This document shows, piece by piece, positions 2,596 to 59,452 of a DNA stretch of 64,000 bases (positions within the stretch are counted from its first letter, which is position 1; the number at the start of each line of letters is the position of its first letter). The notes below the pieces were generated by a model, which searched no databases, was not told the origin of the DNA, and saw only the letters and a program-made list of their open reading frames with translations. Location: contig DATABL010000222.1 in assembly GCA_036259595.1 (NCBI GenBank), forward strand, positions 1,862 through 65,861, in the 5' to 3' direction. Source of the stretch: Actinophytocola sp. (GTDB taxonomy: Bacteria > Actinomycetota > Actinomycetes > Mycobacteriales > Pseudonocardiaceae). A program made the translations under genes and the position numbers.

Positions 2596-3860
2596 GCCAT
2601 CGGAGGGTGGTGGTCACCGGGGTCGGCGTGGTCGCCCCCGGTGGCGTCACGCGGGAGGGCTTCTGGTCGACGCTGACCGCCGGGCGCACCGCGACCCGGA
2701 AGATCACGTTCTTCGACGCGACCAAGTTCCGCTCCCGGGTGGCCGCCGAGGCCGACTTCGACCCGGTCGCGGCCGGCCTGAGCGCGCAGGAGATCCGGCG
2801 CGCGGACCGGTACGTCCAGTTCGGACTCGCGTGCGCGGCCGAGGCGCTGGCCGACTCCGGGCTGGAACTCGACGAGCGGACGCTGGACAACACCGGCGTG
2901 GTGATGGGCTCGGCGGTCGGCGGCACGATGGCCCTGGAGGACGAGTACGTCGCGGTGTCCAACACCGGCAAGGACTGGCTCGTCGACCACACCTACGCCG
3001 GGCCGTTCCTGTACCAGGCGCTGGTGCCGTCGTCGCTGTCCGCGGACATCGCGCACCGGTACGGCACGCACGGCCCCACCCAGGTGGTGTCGACCGGCTG
3101 CACGTCCGGCATCGACGCGATCGGGTACGCCTGGCACCTGGTGCAGGACGGCGAGGCGGACGTGATCATCGCCGGCGCGTCGGACAGCCCGATCTCGCCG
3201 GTCACGGTGTCCTCGTTCGACGCGATCAAGGCCACCACACCGGAGAACGACGACCCGGAGCACGCCTCCCGCCCGTTCGACGCGACCCGCAAGGGCTTCG
3301 TGATGGGTGAGGGCGGCGCGGTGCTGATCCTCGAGGAGCTCTCGCACGCGCTCGCCCGCGACGCGAAGATCTACTGCGAGGTCACCGGGTACGCCAGCCG
3401 CTCCAACGGGTTCCACATGACCGGGCTGCGGCCCGACGGGCTGGAGATGGCCGAGGCCATCCGGGTGTCCCTGGACCAGGGCCGCACCAACCCGTCCGAT
3501 GTGGACTACATCTGCGCGCACGGCTCGGGCACCAAGCAGAACGACCGGCACGAGACCGCGGCGTTCAAGAAGGCGCTCGGCGACCACGCCTACCGCACCC
3601 CGGTGAGCTCGATCAAGTCGATGGTCGGGCACTCGTTGGGCGCGATCGGCGCGATCGAGATGGCCGCGTGCGCGCTCACCATCGACCGGAACACGATCGC
3701 GCCGACGGCCAACTGGTCCAACCGCGACCCGGAGTGCGACCTGGACTACACGCCGAACACCGCCCGCGAGGCAGGCGTCGACGTGGCCCTGTCGGTGGGC
3801 AGCGGCTTCGGCGGGTTCCAGTCGGCGATGGTGTTCAGCCGCCTGAAGGAGGCGTCATGA
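2592..3860 (+). CDS. Type II PKS ketosynthase alpha
   Basis: VSTGCTSGIDA active-site Cys, AHGSGTKQND, KSMVGHSLGAIG, GSGFGGFQSA; ATGA overlap with upstream gene. Confidence 0.96.
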   Translation: MSHRRVVVTGVGVVAPGGVTREGFWSTLTAGRTATRKITFFDATKFRSRVAAEADFDPVAAGLSAQEIRRADRYVQFGLACAAEALADSGLELDERTLDNTGVVMGSAVGGTMALEDEYVAVSNTGKDWLVDHTYAGPFLYQALVPSSLSADIAHRYGTHGPTQVVSTGCTSGIDAIGYAWHLVQDGEADVIIAGASDSPISPVTVSSFDAIKATTPENDDPEHASRPFDATRKGFVMGEGGAVLILEELSHALARDAKIYCEVTGYASRSNGFHMTGLRPDGLEMAEAIRVSLDQGRTNPSDVDYICAHGSGTKQNDRHETAAFKKALGDHAYRTPVSSIKSMVGHSLGAIGAIEMAACALTIDRNTIAPTANWSNRDPECDLDYTPNTAREAGVDVALSVGSGFGGFQSAMVFSRLKEAS

Positions 3861-5092
3861 CAGGGTCCCGTGCGGTGATCACGGGGATCGGGGTGGTCGC
3901 ACCCTCGGGTGTGGGTGCCGACGCGCACTGGAAGTCCGTGCTGGACGGGAGCTCGAAGCTCGGCGGGATCACCCGGTTCGACGCGTCGGGCTACCCGGTC
4001 TCCCTGGCCGGCGAGGTGACCGACTTCGACCCGGACGACTACGTCTCGCCCCGGCTGAAGGTCGCCACCGACCGGTGGACCTGGCACGGGTTCGCGGCCA
4101 CCCAGGAGGCCCTCGACGACTCCGGCGTCGATCTGTCCACGATGGACCCGTACGACACCGCGGTCGCGCTGGCGTCGTCGTCCGGGGGCAACGAGTTCGG
4201 CCAGGGCGAGCTGCAGTCGCTGTGGGCCGAGCCGGACGGCGCGGTGAGCGTGTACCAGTCGATCGCGTGGTTCTACGCGGCGAGCGTCGGGCAGATCTCG
4301 ATCCTGCACCAGCTCAAGGGCCAGTGCAGCGTACTGGTCGCGGAGAGCGCCGGCGGGCTGGACAGCTTCGCGCAGGCCACCCGGACCGTCCGGCGCGGCA
4401 CGAAGGTCGTGCTCGCCGGCGGCACCGAGGGCCCGCTGTCGCCGTACGCGCTGACCTGCCAGCTCGCCACCCGCCGGCTCTCCACCGGCACCGACCCGGA
4501 CACGGCGTACCAGCCGTTCGGGGCCGGCGCCGCCGGCTACGTCGCCGCCGAGGGTGGCGCGGTGCTGCTGGTGGAGGACCTCGACCACGCGCGGGAGCGC
4601 GGCGCGGACATCCACGGCGAGGTGCTCGGCTGGGCCGCCACGCACGACGGCCGCGCCTCCCGTCCGGGCGACGGGGGCGACACCGAGCAGGTCGCGCGGG
4701 CCATGCGGGTGGCGCTGGAGCGGGCCGGCCGGCCGGCGTCCGAGGTGGACGTCGTGTTCCCGGACGCGCTCGGGGTGCCGGAGTGCGACCGGGTCGAGGC
4801 CGAGGCCATCCGCTCGGTGTTCGGCGACGACGTCCGGGTCACCACGCAGAAGGGCCGGCTGGGTCGCATGTACCAGGGCGGCGCGGCGGTCGACGTGGCC
4901 ACCGCGCTGCAGGCCATGCGCTACGACACGCTGCCGGCCACGCCGGGTCTCACCGAGCCGGCGCCGGGCTGCGAGCTGAACTTCGTCACCGAGCCGACCA
5001 CCCAACGCACCTCGCTGGCGCTGGTCAACGCACGCGGGTTCGACGGGTACAACACCGCGCTCGTCGTCGGGCGCTACGAGGAGGACGCATGA
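3857..5092 (+). CDS. Type II PKS chain length factor (KS beta)
   Basis: AVITGIGVVAP, SSSGGNEFGQ, YQSIAWFYAA, ESAGGLD (no catalytic Cys), ARGFDGYNTA; ATGA overlap with KSalpha. Confidence 0.95.
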   Translation: MTGSRAVITGIGVVAPSGVGADAHWKSVLDGSSKLGGITRFDASGYPVSLAGEVTDFDPDDYVSPRLKVATDRWTWHGFAATQEALDDSGVDLSTMDPYDTAVALASSSGGNEFGQGELQSLWAEPDGAVSVYQSIAWFYAASVGQISILHQLKGQCSVLVAESAGGLDSFAQATRTVRRGTKVVLAGGTEGPLSPYALTCQLATRRLSTGTDPDTAYQPFGAGAAGYVAAEGGAVLLVEDLDHARERGADIHGEVLGWAATHDGRASRPGDGGDTEQVARAMRVALERAGRPASEVDVVFPDALGVPECDRVEAEAIRSVFGDDVRVTTQKGRLGRMYQGGAAVDVATALQAMRYDTLPATPGLTEPAPGCELNFVTEPTTQRTSLALVNARGFDGYNTALVVGRYEEDA

Positions 5093-48812: not shown

Positions 48813-50072
48813 TCACTCACGCCCTGATCCGGTCACCTCGGCGCACTGCTCGACCAGCTCGGCTCGCAGGTGCTCGAGCCGTTCGCGTGCCGCCGTGACC
48901 TCGTCGTCGCGCAGCAGCTGGCGGCCGTCCTCGATCGGCTCGGTCCAGAGTGGAGGCTCGGCCAGGGCGCCGAACAGCGGACGCCGCCGCCCCGGCTCGA
49001 ACACCGGAGCGTGGGGGCCGGCACGGCCGTGCTCGTGCCGGCGCCGCAGGATGTGCTCCCAGGCCTGGTCCAGGTGCCGGGAGCCCTGCGCCGTCAGCTC
49101 GGCGAGCAACCCGCGCAGCCGCTCGTTCGCCGCGGCGAACGCGGCGACGGCGACACCGGCGTCGGTGGCGAGCGTGTCCCCGGTGGCGCCGGCGGCGGCG
49201 AGGCGCCGGTCCGCTCCGCGCGCCGAGTCCGCGTGGGGGTTGTGGTAGATCGCCTTCACCGCGATGGCGGTCACGCTGAACAGCAGCAACAACAGCGTGA
49301 CCGCGTCGGTGGGGGTGCTGACCGCACCGGTCTGCGAGTCACGTGCCCGCAGGACCGCCCACAGGGCCAGCGTGCCGAGCACGAGCAGGCCGAACCCGGT
49401 CGGCAACCACCAACGGGCCCACGGCAGGTCGTCGCGTTCGCGTTGCCGGTGCGGGCGGCGCCGGCGTTTCCGGATCAGGCTGCGCTCGGCGCGCTCCCGG
49501 GAGCGGAACAGGGCCTCGCCCAGCCAGTGCCCCGCCACGAGCAGCGCCACGGTGACCATCACCCCGGGCAGCAGCGCGACGTAGAACACCGGGTTCGTCG
49601 GGCTCGGCTCGACGTCGACCAGCGTGAGGAACACGACGGCGAAGAACGCGGTGTCGTACAGGCCGGCCGCCGGCACCGCGAGCCACAACGCCCACTTCGC
49701 CCACGCCGGCCGGACCCGTCGGTCCTCCGCGCCGTCGGACCGGTGCCGGTGCCACACCCGGCGCACGTCGGCCCATCTCCTGGCGAGCGCGCCGCCCTGG
49801 AGGAACACGTGCAACCGGCGCAACGCGTCCGCCGCCGCGCGCTCGTGGTCGAGCAGGGCGGCCACACCGGCGTCGATCTCCGGCCGCGCGGCCGCCACGG
49901 TCCGGTCGGCGGCGGTCCTGGCCGCGACGACCTCGGCGGCCTCCTCGTTGTTCAACTCGTCCCGCCGGTAGGCCGGGTGTTCCACCGACGGCTCCGGTGG
50001 GGCGCCGTGGCACGGCATGCCCTTGGGGCAGGGGGTGTGCAGGTAGAGCGTGCGCGCTCCGTTCTCGGTCAT
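48813..50072 (-). CDS. Uncharacterised 4-TM membrane protein with helical N- and C-terminal regions
   Basis: ATGA overlap with upstream gene; four hydrophobic segments; N-terminal CPKGMPCH. Confidence 0.72.
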   Translation of the reverse strand: MTENGARTLYLHTPCPKGMPCHGAPPEPSVEHPAYRRDELNNEEAAEVVAARTAADRTVAAARPEIDAGVAALLDHERAAADALRRLHVFLQGGALARRWADVRRVWHRHRSDGAEDRRVRPAWAKWALWLAVPAAGLYDTAFFAVVFLTLVDVEPSPTNPVFYVALLPGVMVTVALLVAGHWLGEALFRSRERAERSLIRKRRRRPHRQRERDDLPWARWWLPTGFGLLVLGTLALWAVLRARDSQTGAVSTPTDAVTLLLLLFSVTAIAVKAIYHNPHADSARGADRRLAAAGATGDTLATDAGVAVAAFAAANERLRGLLAELTAQGSRHLDQAWEHILRRRHEHGRAGPHAPVFEPGRRRPLFGALAEPPLWTEPIEDGRQLLRDDEVTAARERLEHLRAELVEQCAEVTGSGRE

Positions 50073-51289
50073 GGCGTCCCGCTCCCCGGTGCGGCGACGA
50101 CGTCGACCCGCCGGTTGCACTGCCGGGACCGGTCGTCGGCCGCCGGGGCCGGGCAGCCGGGCGCGGTGCCGGCGTGCCCGGTCGCGCGCGCGACGTGCAC
50201 ACCGAGGCCGGCCAGGAACGAGCGGACGACGTTCGCCCGCCGCTGGGCGAGCGTCCGGTTGGCCTGCGCGCTCGCCTGCGCCTCGGTGTAGCCGTCCACG
50301 GTGACGCGCGGCGCCGGCCGCTTGGCGATGTCGGCGGCGACGGCGGTCAGCTCGGACCTGCCGGCCGCGCTCAACGTCCAGTCGTTCGGGGTGAACAGCA
50401 CCGAGGAGTCCAGCCGGTAGACGACCGAGCCGTCGGCCTGTCGTACGCCCCGCTCCGCCGGAGGGAACGACACGACCGGGTCGGGTGGGGCGTCGGCCGC
50501 GGTGCGCACCCGCGCCTCCGCCACCGGCGTGGTGGACACGGCACAGCTCGCCCGCAGACTCTCGCACAGCGTGGACCACAGCGACGCCAGCCACTCCAGC
50601 TGCAGCGTGGAGGGCACGGGGTGACCGTCGCCGGGGTGCCCGACGCCCAGCAGCGTCACCGCCGTCCCGGACAGGTCGGGCAGCCCGCGCTCACGGCACA
50701 GCCGGTCGATCGGCCCGATCATCGCGAGGTCGCCGACGGTGACCCGGGTCAGGTCCGCGCACCCGGTGGTGGCGAGTCCGTCGGTGGCCACCGCGATCCG
50801 CCGGTCGCCCTCGGTGCCGGCCAGTTCCTGCCCGGCCACGGCGATCGCGCCCAGGACGTCGGTACCGGGCGCCTTCGCCGGCACGGCGGCCGCCCGCTTG
50901 AGCTCGGTCCGCAGACACGTCCGCGCCGTGTCGCGGTCGGCCTCCCGGTTGCTCTCCTTGTTCCGGCCGCGATCGGTCACCCACCCCTCCGCGATCCACC
51001 GCACGGTGCTCGCGGTGCCGTCGAACGTGCCGACGTACACCACGTGTCCGGCCTCGACCGCGTCGTGGACCACGCCCCCGAGCGCGGAGACGTAGTCGGG
51101 TCCGGTGGCCCCGGCGGTGGAGGCCGACCGGTCCAGCAGGACGATCGTCCGGCCGGCGTCCCCCGCGGACCCGGCGGTCATCCAGTCGCACGCGCCCACG
51201 CCCTCGGCCTCGTCGAAGAAGCTGCAGCCGGCGAGCGCCGGCACCGCCAGCAGCGCGGCGACCGCGGTGACGCTGATCCCCTTCCTCAT
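50069..51289 (-). CDS. Lipoprotein with vWA (MIDAS) domain and C-terminal OmpA-like peptidoglycan-binding domain
   Basis: Lipobox LAGC; VLLDRSAS, GTDVLGAI, VATDG (complete MIDAS); LDSSVLF...VDGYTE...N..LAQRRA..V...NRRVDV. Confidence 0.82.
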   Translation of the reverse strand: MRKGISVTAVAALLAVPALAGCSFFDEAEGVGACDWMTAGSAGDAGRTIVLLDRSASTAGATGPDYVSALGGVVHDAVEAGHVVYVGTFDGTASTVRWIAEGWVTDRGRNKESNREADRDTARTCLRTELKRAAAVPAKAPGTDVLGAIAVAGQELAGTEGDRRIAVATDGLATTGCADLTRVTVGDLAMIGPIDRLCRERGLPDLSGTAVTLLGVGHPGDGHPVPSTLQLEWLASLWSTLCESLRASCAVSTTPVAEARVRTAADAPPDPVVSFPPAERGVRQADGSVVYRLDSSVLFTPNDWTLSAAGRSELTAVAADIAKRPAPRVTVDGYTEAQASAQANRTLAQRRANVVRSFLAGLGVHVARATGHAGTAPGCPAPAADDRSRQCNRRVDVVAAPGSGTP

Positions 51290-52089
51290 GCCGCACCCGC
51301 TTCCTCGGCCGCGGCCAGCACGTCCTCGCGCACCCCCGCCTGCCGGGCGAAGGTCCGCGCCGCCAGGTCGTAGGACTCGGCCAGCTCGAACATGCCGATC
51401 CGTCCGTGGCCGTTGCGGGCCTTCTCCAGCACGCTGACCAGGTCGGTGCCCAACGCGAGCTGCCGGTCGGCCAGGCCGTCCAGCGCGGCGGCGAGGTCGG
51501 TGTCGGTGAGCGTCGCCGCCTGGACGACCAGCGGGGTGGAGCCGAACTCCGCCAGCACGTCCCGCCACCGTTCCAGCAGGTCGACGAGGTGGTCGATGCG
51601 CCGATGCTCGACCCGGTACCGCAGGTCCAGCTCGACCAGCCGCTCCCACAGCGGCAGGTGCCGGTCGAGCACCCGCCCGTCGGCCAGCACCCGCACGCTG
51701 GCCCGGCAGGCGACGAGCTCGCCGGTCTCCTCGCCGTAGCACCAGCCGTCGCGCAGCGCCTCGTTCATCGCGCGCTCGGCGTCCTCCGGGCGGTGCGGTT
51801 CGGTGGCGCGGGAGATGGGCCAGATCGCGGTGCGCAGCGCCCGGACCGCGCTGTCGTGGTAACGGTCGACCCGCTCGCGCAGCGTTTCCGCCCAGACACC
51901 ACGGGCGGACCAGGTCAGGTCGTACTCCACGGTGAAGGTGAAGACCCCGCCGTCGGCCGGCACGACGATCGGGTCACCGGTGCGGTACTCGAGGACCACC
52001 GTGTCGGCCGGCGTCAGCACGGGCCGGGTGAACCAGCCGCGGATCCTGGCGAAGAGGCCTCGCCGCGGGGTCGGTGCTGCTGTGGTCAT
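51286..52089 (-). CDS. Uncharacterised protein, possibly SPFH/band-7-like with C-terminal helical region
   Basis: ATGA overlaps at both ends; VPADGGVFTFTVEYDLTW beta-rich segment followed by helices; fold assignment tentative. Confidence 0.6.
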   Translation of the reverse strand: MTTAAPTPRRGLFARIRGWFTRPVLTPADTVVLEYRTGDPIVVPADGGVFTFTVEYDLTWSARGVWAETLRERVDRYHDSAVRALRTAIWPISRATEPHRPEDAERAMNEALRDGWCYGEETGELVACRASVRVLADGRVLDRHLPLWERLVELDLRYRVEHRRIDHLVDLLERWRDVLAEFGSTPLVVQAATLTDTDLAAALDGLADRQLALGTDLVSVLEKARNGHGRIGMFELAESYDLAARTFARQAGVREDVLAAAEEAGAA

Positions 52090-54353
52090 GTGCTCATTCC
52101 CTTCGAGAGGTTGTCGTGCAGGCGCCGCAGGATCGACAGCTCGGGGTAGCGGTGCCGCCAGAGTTCGAGGTGGAACCGGGCCCGGACGTACACGGCGTGG
52201 TGGTGCAGGAGCTCGCCGGCGAACCGCTCGGTCGCCTGGTCGAGCTCGCCCCGGCCGTCGGCCCGGACGAACCAGGCGAGCAGGGCTTCCCAGCCCCGCG
52301 TCGCCGTCCTGGGTTCGGTCAGCGTGGCCCGCCACAGCTCGACGAGCCGGTCCCGGGCGACGCGGTCCGCGCGGGCCAGGCACAGCAGTGCCGGCCAGCA
52401 GTCGTCCGGCGCCGGGGCCGGCCGGTGGGCGAGGAAGGTCAGCGCGCGGGCCGCGTGCACGCGCACGCACCGCTCGCCGTCGCGGGCCCACCGGGACAGC
52501 TCGTCGAGGACGACGTGGGCGAACTCCGGGTCGTCGGGGCGGTAGACGTGTGCGAGCGCGCGGGCGACCGCGGGGCTGCCCTCCTGCTCCCGCCGGAAGG
52601 CGATCAGCCAGAGCGGGGTCAGCGCGTCCTCGGTGAACTCGGATCCCAGCCGGGTGGCGTAGCAGCGGGCGGCGGTGTCGTTGCGGAACGGGTCCGGGCT
52701 GAGCGCCCAGTCGCGGACCTGCCGGCAGACCCGGCGGGTCATGGCCGGCTCCAGGACCGCCCGTTCCATCGCCCACGCCGCGGCCTGCCGGTGCGACCGC
52801 CGCTCCGAGGCCGCCCACACCCGCAGCAACCGGCGGTACACCAGGCCGAAGTCGAAGACCGCGAGCTGACCGGCCACCTGCCCGGCCCGCATCCGGACCC
52901 GCTCTCGCTGGTCGCCGCCCAGGTCACCGAGCCAGTCCAGCAGCGGGTTCCGCAGGTGGTCGTAGTCGTGCCAGACCACGTCGAGCACCGCCTTGGCCAG
53001 CGTCGGGTCCACCAGCCGGGCCCGGCGGGCGGCCGGCTGCTCGTCGTCGGGCCGGTCCGGGCCGGAACGCCCCCGCATCTCGGCGTCGACCAGGTCCTCC
53101 AGGCCGCCCGCGAACACGGAGCTGACCAGCCCCGGCTGTTCGGCGAGCGTCTCCTCGGGCAGCGCGGCACGCAACGCGGCGGCGAGCTCGAAGACCAGCG
53201 GGTGCGGATGGCCGTTGTAGACGGCATAGGCGATCCGCGTGGTCAGCCGGCGCAGCGTGTGCACGTCGCCGTCCTGGTTCGCCCCGGCCAACATGCGTGC
53301 CGCGAGGTCGCGCAACGCGCCCGGCAGCAGGGCGACGGCCTCGGCGGGGTCCCCGCCCTGCTGTCCGGTCTCAGCCAGGCGTTGGGCGAGGGTCACCACC
53401 TCGCCGGGTCGCGACGAGGCCCGGAGCTGCTCGGCGACGGTGGGGTCGAGGCGACAGGTGCGGACGAACTCCGCACACCGCGCCTCCGACCAGCCCTGGA
53501 CACGCAGCAGGTGGGTCAGATGGCGTTCGAGCACCTGCGCGGCGGGCGGCGGGCGGAACGGCACCGCGTACGGCTCGAGCGCGTCGACCGGCGCACCGAC
53601 GACGACCAGGTAGCCCTGGTTCTCGTCCAGTACGCCGCCCGCCGTGGCCAGGGTCTGCTTGCGCGGCGGGCGGGCCGGCGAAAGCTCGACGACGTGACCG
53701 TGCCCGGTGGCCAGCAGCCCGTCCTGGTCCAGCACCGTGGTCAGGTCCGCCTCGTCGTCCAGGTCGATCGAGACGACCTTGTCGCTACCGCTGAGCTCCG
53801 CGAGCGCGGCCAGGGCCGTCGCCAGCCGACCGGTGCCCTCGTGCCCGTTCAGGAAGGCGACCCGGTACTGGCGCAGGGTGTCGAGCAGCGCGCCGTACTC
53901 GGCGGTCCAGACGTGGGTGGCCAGGGTGGTCTCGACCAGTCCCACCGGACGCGCGCTGCGCGCCCGCTTCGTCGGTTCGGCGCCGAAGTAGTTCGAGATG
54001 CTGTCGGCGACCATGGCGCGCTCACCCGACGCCGCCTTGTCGGAGATGGACCACGGCGTCAGGGGCCGCTCCGCGGCGTACCGGCTGCGGGCGGCCCCCC
54101 GGCGGACCGAACGGAGGACGTCGAGGTCGACACCGAGACGCCGCAGGCTCTCGTCCCGCGACTGCTGGTCCTGCCACTCGGTGTCGGGCTCATCCGTCTC
54201 GTCCAGCAGCGCCTCCGGTGCGGGTTCCGGTTCCGGTTCTGGTGTCGGTGTCGGCTCCGGTGTCGGCTCCGATGGCTCGACGGGCTCGGCCGGCTGGGCG
54301 ACCGGTTCCGGCTCGGCCGGGGGCGGGTTCTGGTCGGGGTCCATCCGACTCAC
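52086..54353 (-). CDS. STAND/NLR-like protein: Pro/Glu-rich N-terminus, degenerate P-loop NTPase, C-terminal ARM/HEAT-like repeats
   Basis: RVAFLNGHEGTGRLATAL (Walker A with R for K, no S/T), GYLVVVG strand, Ala/Leu/Arg/Trp helical repeats; GTGA overlap with the BTAD gene. Confidence 0.7.
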   Translation of the reverse strand: MSRMDPDQNPPPAEPEPVAQPAEPVEPSEPTPEPTPTPEPEPEPAPEALLDETDEPDTEWQDQQSRDESLRRLGVDLDVLRSVRRGAARSRYAAERPLTPWSISDKAASGERAMVADSISNYFGAEPTKRARSARPVGLVETTLATHVWTAEYGALLDTLRQYRVAFLNGHEGTGRLATALAALAELSGSDKVVSIDLDDEADLTTVLDQDGLLATGHGHVVELSPARPPRKQTLATAGGVLDENQGYLVVVGAPVDALEPYAVPFRPPPAAQVLERHLTHLLRVQGWSEARCAEFVRTCRLDPTVAEQLRASSRPGEVVTLAQRLAETGQQGGDPAEAVALLPGALRDLAARMLAGANQDGDVHTLRRLTTRIAYAVYNGHPHPLVFELAAALRAALPEETLAEQPGLVSSVFAGGLEDLVDAEMRGRSGPDRPDDEQPAARRARLVDPTLAKAVLDVVWHDYDHLRNPLLDWLGDLGGDQRERVRMRAGQVAGQLAVFDFGLVYRRLLRVWAASERRSHRQAAAWAMERAVLEPAMTRRVCRQVRDWALSPDPFRNDTAARCYATRLGSEFTEDALTPLWLIAFRREQEGSPAVARALAHVYRPDDPEFAHVVLDELSRWARDGERCVRVHAARALTFLAHRPAPAPDDCWPALLCLARADRVARDRLVELWRATLTEPRTATRGWEALLAWFVRADGRGELDQATERFAGELLHHHAVYVRARFHLELWRHRYPELSILRRLHDNLSKGMST
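54218..54325 (-). repeat. Pro-Glu/Pro-Thr low-complexity coding repeat
   Basis: Encodes PPPAEPEPVAQPAEPVEPSEPTPEPTPTPEPEPEP; imperfect 6-bp units such as ggttcc/ggtgtc. Confidence 0.7.
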
Positions 54354-55252
54354 CCACCCGTCTGCCAGTGGTTGGTGATGGACCCGGCGATCATCGCGCG
54401 CTCCCCGGTGACGTGGTTGCCCGAAATGTGCACGGCGCCGGGTGCCTCGGTGGCGGACGAGTCGTCCGGTTTGGCATCCGGTTTCGTGATGGCCTCGATG
54501 GCCTCTGCGCGGGCAGGGATCAGCGCGGGGTCATGGTCGAGGATTCGCTTGTGCATTCTCGCGAGTGGTTCGCGCACTTCATTGCCGAGTTCGTCCATGA
54601 TGAATTCGGCGGTTTCGCGGTACACCGCTAGTGCCAGATCCTGGCGACCCGAGCGGTAGTGCGCGAGCATCAGCAGCTCGGCCACCATCTCGTCGAACGG
54701 CTTGTCGCGGTGTAGAGCGGCGAGTTCGGGCAGGTACTGGTCGTGGTTGCCGAGCCGGAGCTCCACCTCCATCCACCGGACCCGAGCGATGTCGATCCGA
54801 TCGACCAGCTCGACGCGGTAGTTGCCCAACCGTTCGCCGGTGAGCACGCCGAGGGGATCCCCGTAGACGAGGTCGAACGCCTCGCGGTACAGCACCGCCG
54901 CCCGCTCGTCGTCGGCCTGCCCCGCGGCCCCGACCAGCGCTTGGAACCGGTGCACGTCAACACTGTCCGCCGGCACATTCAGCTTGCACTGCCCCTGCTC
55001 GCAGACCAGCGCGCCACTCAGGCCCAGGTCGTCGAGCCGGCCGCGCAGACCCGCCATCAGGCTCTCCACGGTGTTCCTGGCGACCGGCTGGTCCCACACC
55101 CACCGCTGCAGCGCCTCACGAGACATGAACGTTCCCCTCTGCGCCAGCAGAGGCACGAGCGCGCGCTGCTCATTGGGCGACCCGAGGGCGACGGGCCGGT
55201 CGTCGAGGTACGCCTGCGGCGGACCAAGTATCCGGAAGTTGGTTGCCATCAT
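54350..55252 (-). CDS. SARP/AfsR-like regulator (winged HTH + BTAD) with C-terminal extension
   Basis: FRILGP, MSREALQRWVW, VDVHRF, ELRLGNH, PFDE...LMLAHYRSGRQDLALAVY...DELG. Confidence 0.88.
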   Translation of the reverse strand: MMATNFRILGPPQAYLDDRPVALGSPNEQRALVPLLAQRGTFMSREALQRWVWDQPVARNTVESLMAGLRGRLDDLGLSGALVCEQGQCKLNVPADSVDVHRFQALVGAAGQADDERAAVLYREAFDLVYGDPLGVLTGERLGNYRVELVDRIDIARVRWMEVELRLGNHDQYLPELAALHRDKPFDEMVAELLMLAHYRSGRQDLALAVYRETAEFIMDELGNEVREPLARMHKRILDHDPALIPARAEAIEAITKPDAKPDDSSATEAPGAVHISGNHVTGERAMIAGSITNHWQTGG

Positions 55253-55397
55253 CGTCTTTCTGTCTCGTTCGAATTGATCCGATATCCAGCTACTCATCCA
55301 GTCGAACGCAAGTAAAACGCCCAGCTCACCACCCAGGAGCGCCCTGAATCGTCGTTCTCACGGCGGCAGAAAGCCACCGAAAAACGACGGAGGAAAA

Positions 55398-55622
55398 ATG
55401 CGCGAGAACTACTGTGCTGTCGAGATTCCGGCGAACGCCGAATGGCGTAAGGCCACGTACAGCGAGGCGCACGGATCGTGTGTGGAGCTCACCCCGGTCG
55501 GCGCCGGGTTCGCCGTGCGGGACTCGAAGAACACCGACGGTCCGGTGATGCGGCCGGTCGTCTCCGGGTGGGCGGTGTTCCTCGGCCGGGTCCGCACCGA
55601 CGGCTTCGACCGCCGGGCCTGA
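55398..55622 (+). CDS. DUF397 domain protein
   Basis: WRKATYS...SCVEL...AVRDSKN..GP...W..F. Confidence 0.88.
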   Translation: MRENYCAVEIPANAEWRKATYSEAHGSCVELTPVGAGFAVRDSKNTDGPVMRPVVSGWAVFLGRVRTDGFDRRA

Positions 55623-55630
55623 TCCCGTCC

Positions 55631-55685
55631 CGGTGACGCGGGGTGTGTCGCACCCCCAGACCGCGGCACACCCCGCGCCTCACCG
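55631..55685. terminator. Bidirectional terminator-like hairpin
   Basis: cggtga-cgcggggtgtgtcgc / gcggcacaccccgcg-cc-tcaccg between convergent genes. Confidence 0.6.
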
Positions 55686-55713
55686 CCGCGACGGCTGCTC
55701 GGCAGCGCGCCCG

Positions 55714-56586
55714 TCATCCCCGGGCGGCCCGTGCCTCCGAGCCGAGCTCGGCGAGCAGCGCGCGGGCGGCGTCGCCGAACAGGGCGGCACCGGCCAGCAG
55801 TTCCCACCTCCGCTGATACAGCGTCACGTCGCCCGGCTCCCGGGCGAACAGGTTGGCGTGGATGGTGTCGACCTCGACGTAGGCGTCCTGCCCGTCGTCG
55901 TTGGCCTCGTAGATGACGAACCCGTGTGAGGTCGGGCTCGCCGCGGGCGCGTCCAGCGGGATCAGGCCGATGGAGACGTTGTCCAACGTGGTCAACGTCG
56001 CGATCCGGTCGAGTTGGGCCGCCAGGAGCCGGGGCGGGCCGGGACGCCAGCGCAGCGCCGCCTCGGTGATCACGAACTCGAACCGCCGGCCCTCGTCGTA
56101 GACCACCAGCTGCCGCCGCAACCGGCCGGCGAGCGTGTCGGCCATCTCCTCCGCCGATCGCGACACCTGCCCCATGGCGATCACCCGCCGTGCGTACTCC
56201 GCCGTCTGCAGCAGCCCCGGCACGAGGGCGGGCTGGAAGGTACGCAGCAGCCGCGCACGCATCTCGCGCTCCTCGATCTCGCCCTGGATGTGCGCCCGGT
56301 CGCTGAGCGTGGCGGGCCAGCTGTGCACCTCGGTGAACACCGACTCGGTCAGCGCGACCAGTTGTCCGCGCCGTTCGGTGGTGGCGCCGACCTCGTCGGC
56401 CCATCGCGACACTTCCAGGACCGTCGGGGTCGCATGGCCGGACTCGATACGCGACACCTTGGACTGGCTGACGCCGATGCGGCTCGCGAGCTCCCGGCCG
56501 GACATGCCGACCAGCTCGCGGGCCTGGCGCAGCTCGCCACCGAGCTGCCGACGCCTGGTCGGCCGTGCAGCGCCGCCCCCGGCCAT
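55714..56586 (-). CDS. XRE-family HTH + DUF5753 regulator (WhiJ/Scr1-like)
   Basis: RRRQLGGELRQAR, SQSKVSRIESG, LVPGLLQTAEYAR, RLRRQ, VITEAALR, SIGLIP. Confidence 0.9.
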   Translation of the reverse strand: MAGGGAARPTRRRQLGGELRQARELVGMSGRELASRIGVSQSKVSRIESGHATPTVLEVSRWADEVGATTERRGQLVALTESVFTEVHSWPATLSDRAHIQGEIEEREMRARLLRTFQPALVPGLLQTAEYARRVIAMGQVSRSAEEMADTLAGRLRRQLVVYDEGRRFEFVITEAALRWRPGPPRLLAAQLDRIATLTTLDNVSIGLIPLDAPAASPTSHGFVIYEANDDGQDAYVEVDTIHANLFAREPGDVTLYQRRWELLAGAALFGDAARALLAELGSEARAARG

Positions 56587-57109
56587 CGCCACTCCTGCCG
56601 TCCCGTCGCCCGATCACCAGCAACCACATTCTCCCTGATTCAGAATGATTCATAGCGAACCATCGTGATGCAAGCCCGTCAAGGGTCAATCTCGTGTCGA
56701 TCAATTTCCGGTCGCTCGGCCGATCACCTCAGGAATTCCTGCGCACAAATCCCGACCGAGTCCGAATGGAATCGCGATCTTCGCGCGGTAGCGCACACAG
56801 TGGACCTCACCCACGGACCAGGCCGCCCTGCGGTCATGACGGTTCCGATCTTGACATTTTCTTGGTACACAAGCGAAACCTCTACCTCCTGGCCACGCAC
56901 GCCGACGACGCGCAAGATCGAACAACCCCGGCGTCGTGCTGATTTCTCCGGTTTCTCGCAAGCCCTCGCGAATCGCCCACCCGCCTTTGTCGTATGGTGT
57001 GCCGCACATGGTGGACCAACTGGGAAGCGTCCACCGCAAGAGCTGGAATCATCTGGAATCGCCTGGGCACGAGTACCGCCCCGGCCCGGGATCCCTGGGG
57101 GATCGACCA

Positions 57110-59452
57110 GTGTCCGACGAGCGTGACCGCACCGACGACGACGTCCCGGCGAGCGAGCTCGCCGCCGAGCTGCGCAAACTCTGGGCGGCGGCCGAACGTG
57201 CGCGCGGAGCCGAGATCAGGGTGAGCGCCTTCGCCAAGGAGGAGGCGTTCCTGTCGCCGAGCAGCCTGTACGCCTACCTCGCCGGCACGACCGTGCCGAC
57301 GGCGCTGGTACTGGACCGGATCCTGCGCGCGCTCGGTGTGCACGGCCCTGCGCTCGGACACATGGCCGACCTGCGCGAGGAGGCGGTGTCCGCGCGTCAG
57401 CGGGCCGGCCGGCGCAGGCGGAACCCGGTCCGGCCCGAGCCCGATTCGGTGCCCGCTCCCTGCCAGCTCCCGCCGGATGTGCGCGGGTTCATCGGCCGGG
57501 CCGAGCAACTCGCCGAGCTGGACCGGCTGCTCGTCGCGCGGGAGCGGCAGCCGGCCACGACCGTCGCGCTGGCCAGCGGCACTCCGGGGGTGGGGAAGAC
57601 CGCGCTGGTCACACACTGGGCGCACCGGGTCCGGAACCAGTTCCCGGACGGGATGTTGTACGTGGACCTGCGTGGGTTCGACCCGGAACAGCCCCTCGAG
57701 CCGGGTCAGGTGCTCGGCACGTTCCTGCGCGGCCTCGGTGTCAGCGGCGACGCGATCCCCGCCGAGCTCGCCGAGCGCACGGCGTTGTTCCGCGCGCGGC
57801 TCGACCGGCGCAAGGTCCTGGTCTTCCTGGACAACGCCGCCTCCGAGGACCAGGTCCGGCCGCTGCTGCCGAACAGCCCGGACAGCGTCGTGGTGGTGAC
57901 CAGCCGCAACACGCTCCCCGGCCTCGTCGCCCGGGACGGCGCCCACCTCGTTCCGGTGCCGAGCCTGCCCGTGGGGGAAGCGGTCACGTTGCTGCGGCTG
58001 CTCATCGGCGAGGAGCGGGTGGTCGCCGACCAGGACGGGGCAGCCGAGCTGGTCAAGCGGTGCGCGCTGCTGCCGCTCGCGATCCGCGTCGGCGCCGACC
58101 TGGCGACGACCCGCAGGCGCGAACGGCTCATCGTGCTCGCCGACGAGCTGCACCGCTACCACCTGGACCTGTTCAGCGCCGGCGGGGACGAGCGCACCGC
58201 GATCCGCGCGGTGTTCTCGTGGTCCTACCTGCACCTGCGGGCCGACCGCGCCCGAGCGTTCCGCCTGCTCGGCCTGCACCCGGGCCACGACCTCGACGTC
58301 TACACCTGTGCCGCGCTGCTCGACGTCGAACTCGCCGCCGCTCGCCTGCGGATCGACGACCTGGTCCGGGCGAACCTGCTGGAGCACGCGGGCGACCAGC
58401 GGTACCGCATGCACGACCTGCTGCGCGCGTACGCCCACGAGCAGACGCCGCGCGACGAGGCCGAGGAGGCGATGCACCGCCTGTTCGACCACTACCTGAG
58501 CACCAGCGCCGCGGCCATGGACCTGGTGATCCCCGACGACCACCACAGCCGCCCGGCGATCGCGATGCGGGCGTCCGAGCACCCCCTGGTCTCCGCCGAG
58601 GAGGCCATCGCCTGGCTCGACGCGGAGCGGCGGAACCTGCTGACCCTGGCCGAGGTCGCGGCGAACGAGGACTGGCCGCCGGTCTGCGCCACGCAGATGT
58701 CCGCCCTGCTGTGCCGGTACCTGCACAACCGGGCGCACTACGCGGACGCGATGGCACTGCACACCCTCGCGTTGAAGGTGGCGCGGCACCGGGAGAGCGC
58801 GGAGCTGGAGGGCTGGGAGCTGGCGCGCATCGGCGACGTCCACCTGCGGCTGGGCCACCACGTGGAGGCGCTGGACCACCTGGAGCACGCGCTCACCATC
58901 GCCCGGCAGATCGGTGATCCGAGGCTGGAGGCCAGGGCGCTGCGGCTGCTGGGCCAGGTGTGCTTACGCCAGGGCCGGCACCAGGACGCGCTGGCCCTTC
59001 TCCGCCAGGCACTGCCGCTGACCCGGACCGTGGCCGACCGGCACCTCGAGGGACACGTCCTGAGCATCCTGGGCGTCGTGCTCGACGAGTTGGGCCGCCA
59101 CGAGGAGGCCCGGACCTGCCACGAGGCCGCGGTCACCGTCTCCCAGCAGGTGCGCGACCACGACCTCGCCGGGCACGTGCTCAACAACCTGGGCATCCAC
59201 CACCAGCGGATCGGAGACCCGGAGGCGCACGCCTACCACCGCCGCGCGCTCACCATCGCGCGGCTGGCCGCCAACCCCGGCCTGGAGGCGGACTCGTCGC
59301 TGCGGCTGGGCGTCGCCCTGCGGGACCTGGACCGCACCGAGGAGGCACGGGTCGCGCTGGACAACGCCAGGAGCATCGCCGCCGGAATCGGCGACCGAAC
59401 CGTCATGGCCGAGGTCCACCGCGTCCTGGACACCCTGGGCGGACCGCGATGA
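57110..59452 (+). CDS. HTH + NB-ARC (STAND) + TPR regulator
   Basis: SPSSLYAYLAG HTH; QLPPDVRGFIGR, SGTPGVGKTAL, LVFLDNA, VVVTSR, LPLAIR, YRMHDLLR; C-terminal TPRs; start uncertain (ORF opens at 56936). Confidence 0.9.
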   Translation: MSDERDRTDDDVPASELAAELRKLWAAAERARGAEIRVSAFAKEEAFLSPSSLYAYLAGTTVPTALVLDRILRALGVHGPALGHMADLREEAVSARQRAGRRRRNPVRPEPDSVPAPCQLPPDVRGFIGRAEQLAELDRLLVARERQPATTVALASGTPGVGKTALVTHWAHRVRNQFPDGMLYVDLRGFDPEQPLEPGQVLGTFLRGLGVSGDAIPAELAERTALFRARLDRRKVLVFLDNAASEDQVRPLLPNSPDSVVVVTSRNTLPGLVARDGAHLVPVPSLPVGEAVTLLRLLIGEERVVADQDGAAELVKRCALLPLAIRVGADLATTRRRERLIVLADELHRYHLDLFSAGGDERTAIRAVFSWSYLHLRADRARAFRLLGLHPGHDLDVYTCAALLDVELAAARLRIDDLVRANLLEHAGDQRYRMHDLLRAYAHEQTPRDEAEEAMHRLFDHYLSTSAAAMDLVIPDDHHSRPAIAMRASEHPLVSAEEAIAWLDAERRNLLTLAEVAANEDWPPVCATQMSALLCRYLHNRAHYADAMALHTLALKVARHRESAELEGWELARIGDVHLRLGHHVEALDHLEHALTIARQIGDPRLEARALRLLGQVCLRQGRHQDALALLRQALPLTRTVADRHLEGHVLSILGVVLDELGRHEEARTCHEAAVTVSQQVRDHDLAGHVLNNLGIHHQRIGDPEAHAYHRRALTIARLAANPGLEADSSLRLGVALRDLDRTEEARVALDNARSIAAGIGDRTVMAEVHRVLDTLGGPR

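Follow-up and report, generated by a model that had tools for sequence, protein, structure and literature searches.

We have examined a stretch of 64,000 nucleotides from an Actinophytocola sp. (GenBank assembly GCA_036259595.1, contig DATABL010000222.1, positions 1,862 to 65,861 of the forward strand), referred to here as the window, in which a gene for a SARP-type transcriptional regulator with a BTAD domain is followed by a gene for a large putative receptor, and in which the two proteins carry related copies of a 21-residue motif, referred to here as the tag. The original prediction, made from the sequence alone, read these proteins as a pair coupled through amyloid, in the manner of bacterial amyloid signalling (BASS), with transcription as its output. 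The features on which our analysis turns are listed below, with positions counted in the window; pLDDT is the predicted local distance difference test score of the structural model.

54350..55297, minus strand: SARP-type regulator with winged helix, BTAD domain, Pro/Asp/Ala linker and tag (Pfam, NCBIfam)
54365..54427, minus strand: effector-side tag, BASS-like, resembling cluster C09, which is likely BASS6 (sequence)
52086..54353, minus strand: receptor of 755 residues, with an acidic Pro/Glu N-terminus, the tag, a predicted degenerate P-loop (STAND/AAA+-like) domain and HEAT/ARM repeats (model, Foldseek, VIA)
53985..54047, minus strand: receptor-side tag, residues 103-123 (sequence; pLDDT under 50 in the monomer model)
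53823..53846, minus strand: degenerate Walker A motif, GHEGTGRL (sequence)
51286..52089, minus strand: third core gene, for an SPFH/Band-7-like coiled-coil protein of 267 residues (profile comparison)

The effector-side tag, ISGNHVTGERAMIAGSITNHW, forms the C-terminal end of the SARP protein (54427-54365, minus strand), and the receptor-side tag, ISDKAASGERAMVADSISNYF, lies at residues 103-123 of the receptor (54047-53985, minus strand). Both motifs were found where they had been predicted, and our alignment reproduced the ungapped match that had been reported for them, with 11/21 identities (52% pair identity); the GTGA coupling of the two genes is likewise real, and amounts to an overlap of 4 nucleotides. 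By local BLOSUM62 score (55) the tag pair stands at the top of 1,650 coupled pairs of open reading frames from its own genome, a set that contains some false reading frames and that has a mean of 25.9, a 99th percentile of 42 and a runner-up at 48. A shuffle test of the pair gave p = 0.003, the floor of 300 shuffles. A profile built on the two copies detected no third copy in the 23,067 stop-to-stop frames of this genome, which is 63% complete, and no second receptor was found in the same incomplete genome. At the DNA level the two copies agree at 40/63 nucleotides, and identical residues that allow a synonymous choice use the same codon in 5/10 cases, close to the 5.3 expected from codon bias, so that there is no trace of recent DNA copying between them. 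Nor is the pair an assembly artefact, since a contig from soil run X3, which belongs to a separate study, spans both motifs (53296-54742) with only 2 differences, both outside the motifs; soil runs X1 and X2 match exactly, but are possibly the window's own source.

We compared these observations with related loci (numbered with the prefix L) gathered by scanning genomes and metagenomes, as well as the family and class to which the window belongs; the unpublished genomes G062, G686 and G783 enter the search tallies only. The first set comprised 65 loci, 61 of them with a tightly coupled upstream gene, after 4 with gaps over 60 nucleotides were dropped; from a held-out set 53 loci were fetched and 48 used, 3 being dropped because they had no pair and 2 because of long gaps. 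After removal of L007, which is the same locus as L004, there were 109 coupled loci overall. No loci were found in viral contigs, and plasmid records yielded 2 distant matches. For scoring, the last 60 residues of the upstream protein were aligned with the receptor segment ahead of the ATPase domain. The mean cognate score among the 61 coupled loci was 46.5, as compared with 25.0 for non-cognate combinations, and 26/61 tails ranked their own receptor first. After dereplication at 50% core identity the cognate receptor ranked first for 22/33 tails, with a mean of 49.8 against 25.5 +/- 1.4 in permuted sets (maximum 33.6 in 20,000 permutations), and it outscored the receptor of the nearest relative in 28/33 pairs; in the held-out loci 17/48 tails ranked their own receptor first and 29/48 placed it in the top three. 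These figures are not exact probabilities, because kin loci are not independent of one another. The tags themselves are of many unrelated-looking types across the loci, and the arrangement of an effector C-terminus matched by a receptor N-terminus recurs in homologous loci. Thus the co-variation that had been proposed as a test was observed, and the cognate scores support conservation of the motif at the protein level.

In the window, the score of the tail is 55 with the cognate receptor and 24-37 with the three closest receptors, which are 53-61% identical, from which it follows that the two tag copies have changed jointly since these loci separated. Six loci have a SARP with the tag and no further effector domain, and in these the cognate receptor ranked 1, 1, 1, 2, 6 and 7 of 109. 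One might suppose that the match is a product of chance or of the composition of G/S/N-rich linkers, given so short a motif and the background-level scores of some homologous pairs. The rank of the pair among the 1,650 genome pairs, together with the permutation, the nearest-relative controls and the held-out set, largely refutes this, and we consider it extremely unlikely.

The tags also resemble known amyloid signalling motifs; published sources are cited, here and below, from their accessible portions. Members of BASS cluster C09 such as ASGERAIAVGG (PMC8086366, supplement 1) are by eye close to both window tags, and the motif probably does not represent a new family; judging from file order and family sizes, C09 is likely BASS6. 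Relative to receptor cores, the effector tails are enriched in Asn (5.2x), Ile and Gly and depleted in Leu, Glu and Pro, a composition similar to that reported for BASS motifs, which favours Gln, Asn, Gly, Val and Ile over Lys, Pro and Leu (Dyrka 2020, bioRxiv 10.1101/2020.01.06.895854). The window's pair identity of 52% falls inside the range of 43-56% seen in BASS pairs tested to cross-seed; the amyloid tests in the accessible BASS literature concern BASS1, BASS3 and BASS11, not BASS6. Three of the four loci in the window's clade (L002, L003 and L006) have the pseudo-repeat twice in the SARP and once in the receptor; in the SARP of the window a second one was looked for and not found. A complex prediction with three copies of each 35-residue tag region scored 0.01 (mark 0.34), which counts neither way. 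We regard amyloid-type coupling as such as quite probable. Alternatively, the tags may be non-amyloid docking strands, the SARP tail mimicking a receptor segment or the two forming a small beta-sheet in a soluble complex. Look-alike adaptor pairs of a non-amyloid kind, the effector-associated domains, are present in actinobacterial conflict systems (PMC8195603), and the receptor tag is internal; however, a folded adaptor would have to be longer and less variable than the tag is, the tag is undocked in the monomer model (pLDDT under 50), and by eye it resembles cluster C09. We therefore think docking of this kind improbable.

The receptor has no match in Pfam, NCBIfam or PADLOC. With a profile from 12 close relatives we detected 1,311 clusters of relatives (50% identity) at E<=0.001, and the family occurs in at least 73/400 sampled genomes of the window's family (E<=1e-60). 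An AlphaFold model of residues 103-755, built from 135 sequences, had a pLDDT of 92.9 (under 50 in the tag) and consists of a P-loop domain with a helical lid, joined to a HEAT/ARM solenoid. Alignment of the model with VIA gave AAA+ domains at Z 9-11 (top 11.3) and HEAT repeats at Z up to 13.6; no STAND chain was among the 50 VIA matches listed, a result still compatible with STAND membership. Foldseek returned ARM repeats and a weak whole-length match to SAMD9 (E 1.6e-4, template modelling score 0.17), and a sequence search of the PDB with the receptor profile gave weak matches only, the best P-loop match at E 0.014. In a Pfam analysis of 64 receptors of the family, nSTAND3 was detected in 30 (4 above cut-off), mostly over the first 40-60 profile positions, and HEAT in 13; none of the 64 matched NB-ARC or NACHT at E<=0.01, nor did the window receptor, and none matched the iSTAND/iSTAND2 families. 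The window's Walker A motif, GHEGTGRL, has Arg at the position expected to be Lys, and its Walker B region reads HVVEL, so that the intact Lys/Asp combination is absent. The partner is better described as a protein with a degenerate P-loop domain and HEAT repeats than as a canonical NLR; on the model, the receptor is probably an inactive STAND-like or AAA+-like sensor. Two loci, L092 and L094, have receptors of about 520 residues with no tag and no coupled effector, beside an apparent tRNA gene.

The two genes belong to a three-gene core. The coupled downstream gene matches SPFH-like profiles in 100/109 loci, the profiles having been built from 33 of the scored loci, and 7 more loci match only a self-built profile. 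In the larger third-gene family a Band_7 match was found in 6/28 members, and a model of the family (the L048 copy) matched prohibitin by Foldseek (E 1.6e-7), as well as vault and HflK/C proteins. An SPFH fold with a long coiled coil is seen in that family model, and the window copy is linked to it by profile comparison only (match probability 96.5, E 9.6e-10). The window's third gene has no Pfam match, and the third gene has no family in PADLOC or NCBIfam.

The position occupied by the SARP gene in the window is filled by different effectors elsewhere. By local profiles the 109 coupled loci divide into 54 cyclase-like, 33 TIR, 18 SARP-containing, 3 double cyclase and 1 TIR-cyclase; these labels under-call TIR, as L043, L046, L054 and L059 are TIR by Pfam and are counted among the 54. 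The cyclase-like family matches class III cyclases in the PDB (E 3.5e-8). Among the SARP-containing loci, six have the SARP and tag only (the window, L002, L003, L004, L006 and L111) and 11 have a SARP with a cyclase-like domain or its remnant. In L143 a SARP is joined to a small helical domain and the tag (3247-4515, plus strand); look-alikes of this domain are actinomycete proteins of 130-145 residues, some of them with an RHIM annotation, and the domain is therefore probably Bell-like. Both conserved cyclase aspartates are retained in 1/11 SARP fusions, as against 44/54 cyclase-labelled loci. On a tree of 39/109 receptors the SARP label changes 6 times, at least 5 of these changes being forced by strongly supported branches, which argues for repeated coupling or replacement of the SARP. 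All 18 SARP loci, and none of the 91 others, have an XRE-DUF5753 gene no more than 2.2 kb upstream, and DUF397 is present in 14/18 SARP loci; a Crp-like gene lies upstream in 33/57 cyclase-type, 0/33 TIR and 0/18 SARP loci. Because SARP-only, fusion and remnant loci form a graded series, the comparison suggests that a SARP cassette becomes joined to tagged genes already in place and takes over from a cyclase-Crp relay, the succession of these steps being inferred and the tree unrooted. The BTAD protein first proposed as the effector is thus confirmed in its domain, but is one of several interchangeable effectors and arrives with an XRE/DUF397 cassette. In the window the cassette genes are:

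55398..55622, plus strand: DUF397 protein, divergent from the SARP gene (Pfam DUF397, E 2.2e-14)
55714..56586, minus strand: XRE helix-turn-helix and DUF5753 regulator (Pfam)

These two genes (55398-56586) are convergent, as are their counterparts in 14/18 SARP loci, whereas XRE/DUF397 genes in S. coelicolor are described as tandem pairs (PMC10364602). Divergent from the XRE gene is a regulator with helix-turn-helix (HTH), NB-ARC and TPR parts (56936-59452, plus strand), AfsR/HaaT-like without the SARP; L002 has a similar gene in the equivalent position and L003 a fragment of one, and the window's gene together with the SARP gene would supply the parts of an AfsR. Two other departures among the effectors were seen. 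In L043, L046, L054 and L059 the TIR domain stands ahead of a cyclase remnant without the conserved aspartates, which is the same replacement pattern as in the SARP fusions. In L066 (7944-9401, minus strand) a DA1-like metallopeptidase region precedes the cyclase-like domain and tag, and in L088, a neighbouring locus to L066, a similar DA1-like region is a separate gene.

The window's SARP protein has 315 residues, or 300 if it starts at the ATG at 55252; the 300-residue form is record P0016. Its BTAD domain was matched in Pfam at E 7.8e-23. NCBIfam AfsR matches the SARP part at E 2.5e-34, yet far below the family cut-off; a homologue search with the C-terminal part of the protein returned generic BTAD proteins only, and FastTree separated 17/18 tag-linked SARPs from control SARPs. 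A promoter scan gave nothing above chance, and among the RNA runs listed none contained this stretch. Could such a protein have given up DNA binding? In this account a SARP cassette became fused to a resident effector gene whose domain decayed, leaving a protein that is a non-DNA-binding scaffold, an amplifier or a decoy, or a tail that is a fading remnant. Indeed, 11 loci have the SARP fused to a cyclase-like domain, and L143 has it fused to the probable Bell-like domain; the second domain of L129 and that of L143 each start at an in-frame ATG preceded by a Shine-Dalgarno-like sequence; the tag-linked SARPs have an unusual recognition helix; and several of the fusions show only weak co-variation. 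Yet the tags of the six SARP-only loci continue to follow their own receptors (ranks 1-7 of 109), and these tags have diverged in step among receptors that are 51-61% identical and are doubled in three loci, while BTAD is over the Pfam cut-off in 18/18 tag-linked SARPs and Trans_reg_C is matched at E<=0.01 in 15/18. We find this account unlikely. Ahead of the window's tag there is no internal ATG with a ribosome site, so that a tag-only product is not supported for the window.

As the tags co-vary and resemble amyloid signalling tags, the sensor likely controls the transcription factor by prion-like templating. The particular scheme that we favour, and to which the sequence comparisons lead us to give about an even chance, is that the SARP and the receptor signal through amyloid as BASS pairs do: once activated, the receptor would template the SARP tail, cluster the SARP and switch on transcription. 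The HEAT repeats would sense an invader or an envelope insult, possibly on an SPFH scaffold; receptor oligomers would nucleate amyloid; the tail of the SARP would join a shared cross-beta assembly; and clustering would activate the SARP, as proximity would activate the TIR domains and class III cyclases that serve as effectors in sister loci, with transcription as the output. The SARP may in this way short-cut the cyclase-to-Crp route apparently used by sister loci, and the pair could be viewed as a split AfsR, which has SARP, NB-ARC and TPR in one chain, much as HET-S/NWD2 is the split form of all-in-one fungal NLRs. We also put forward, more tentatively, a broader proposal: that the three-gene core (tagged effector, tagged pseudoATPase-HEAT receptor and SPFH scaffold) is an unannotated platform, widespread in actinomycetes, with the amyloid tags as its plug-in port, into which one XRE/DUF397/SARP cassette lineage was plugged repeatedly, replacing the cyclase-Crp relay and creating a potentially heritable prion switch that is nucleated by the receptor and acts directly on a transcription factor.

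The same amyloid coupling could operate with the opposite sign, the fibril capturing the SARP off DNA and so switching, by feedback or by derepression, either the operon or the XRE/DUF397 circuit. The SARP always occurs with the XRE gene and mostly with DUF397, which looks like a cassette that regulates operons. Against this, the TIR and cyclase-like effectors that occupy this position in other loci fit better with activation by clustering, which is established for the TIR and cyclase effector families. An amyloid conversion that inactivates its protein has been described for Rho of C. botulinum (PMC13506858), but SARPs are activators that dimerise on DNA (bioRxiv 10.64898/2026.09.02.748808), and we judge capture of the SARP to be a fairly unlikely alternative to activation by clustering.

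Several observations weigh against the activating scheme, in addition to the kinship among loci mentioned above. Trans_reg_C in the window's SARP (E 9.2e-5, 22.9 bits) stays below its cut-off of 26.2; the recognition-helix pattern [YH][VI]x[RSK] is found in 0/18 tag-linked SARPs and in 7/19 control SARPs, and the helix differs even among close orthologues. Five aligned upstream regions contain no clear conserved direct repeat that could be an operator, the targets possibly lying elsewhere. The Walker A position holds Arg in 93 and Lys in only 14 of the 109 receptors, which makes an ATP-driven switch doubtful, and the receptor tag lies about 100 residues inside the protein, not at its very start. 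The effector tails, unlike BASS motifs, are enriched in Lys (1.95x). Seven of the 18 SARP loci rank their own receptor 20th or worse, down to 104 of 109, these being six SARP-cyclase-type fusions and L143; even in the window's clade, L003 scores 37 on its own and 35 on a close relative's receptor, and L006 scores 34 on both. The position of L111 in the tree carries a long-branch warning. On balance the interpretation in the original prediction is partly supported.

As compared with described systems, our loci share with BASS the tag layout and the co-variation, and lack the NB-ARC/NACHT receptor with TPR/WD repeats. The BASS1-10 Bell/NLR pairs (Dyrka 2020, bioRxiv 10.1101/2020.01.06.895854) likewise have one tag at the effector C-terminus and one near the receptor N-terminus, in overlapping collinear genes, and their tags are 20-25 residues long, G/N/V/I-rich, with effector-side pseudo-repeats, and come from filamentous actinomycetes; here, unlike in BASS1-10, the effector is a SARP and there is an SPFH-like third gene. 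The same paper already names TIR and guanylate cyclase as alternative BASS effectors and reports split and all-in-one layouts for NLR effectors, and its accessible text has no occurrence of 'BTAD' or 'SARP'. The fungal HET-S/NWD2 pair (HRAM motif) has one receptor repeat and two effector repeats, as in L002, L003 and L006 (Dyrka 2020), but its effector is a pore-former and the window's SARP has a single repeat; the comparison made here concerns layout. In the BASS11 antiphage system Bab/Agp (bioRxiv 10.1101/2024.11.07.622273) a non-NLR receptor templates its effector through a shared amyloid tag in phage infection; it differs in causing Bell-domain cell death, in its TPR-GreA/B-PIN receptor and in its motif family. 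AfsR and other large SARPs (SARP-NB-ARC-TPR) likewise couple a STAND-type switch, equipped with a repeat sensor, to a SARP module as its output (bioRxiv 10.64898/2026.09.02.748808, in whose accessible text 'amyloid' does not occur), but as one chain with an active NB-ARC, whereas separate SARP and receptor genes are here joined only by the tag. The iSTAND/iSTAND2 MoxR-vWA ternary systems (PMC7159879, PMC8195603) are similar in their inactive STAND sensor, their hosts among multicellular bacteria and their TIR or cyclase partners, and different in that our core has no MoxR-vWA pair and uses a short tag rather than a folded effector-associated domain.

A transcription-factor effector for BASS is mentioned neither in the accessible part of the Bab/Agp preprint nor in that of a 2026 review, and 'BTAD' does not appear in PMC12261475, PMC8086366, PMC8195603 or PMC7159879; SARP/BTAD is not among the effectors in this literature. 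Our full-text search, which covered mainly openly available papers, found none that ties BTAD/SARP to an amyloid motif or describes the three-gene core; Table S2 and Fig. S5 of Dyrka 2020 and the Bab/Agp supplements could hold such pairs. What is new is the SARP effector class, the unrecognised receptor family and the SPFH partner; BASS-type signalling is known. The bacterial amyloid signalling described so far leads to cell death or to enzyme effectors, and in animals amyloid signalling reaches gene expression indirectly, through IMD/NF-kB (2026 review). If our reading is true, a SARP as the sole tagged domain extends amyloid signalling to direct gene control in bacteria whose antibiotic production is governed by SARPs, and a mycelium could thereby acquire a transcriptional state that propagates itself. 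Because this large receptor family lacks an entry of its own in Pfam, NCBIfam or PADLOC, counts of BASS signalling that rely on NB-ARC/NACHT are probably far too low. Since TIR, cyclase and SARP effectors occur naturally with a single receptor family, exchanging tags among them offers a way to test the mechanism.

Beyond the core, two further genes follow in the window:

50069..51289, minus strand: predicted lipoprotein with vWA-like and OmpA-like domains, accessory (OmpA, E 5.2e-11)
48813..50072, minus strand: predicted multi-pass membrane protein, accessory (common to L002, L003, L004 and L039)

Genes for the lipoprotein and the membrane protein are common to the window, L002, L003, L004 and L039, and VWA_2 was matched (E 0.001) in the L002 lipoprotein orthologue only. 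The accessory genes point to, and do not prove, a part in defence or envelope stress. Elsewhere, ten loci (L052, L064, L065, L068, L073-L075 and L078-L080) have a triad of PP2C phosphatase, kinase and vWA genes as genes 2-4 downstream of the receptor, nine of these loci being TIR-type and L073 cyclase-type; the triad resembles TerY-P systems. In L005 (9207-13702), a cyclase-type locus from Streptomyces, the core is followed by a Pycsar-type membrane effector, a vWA protein and a gene whose product is tubulin-like by eye.

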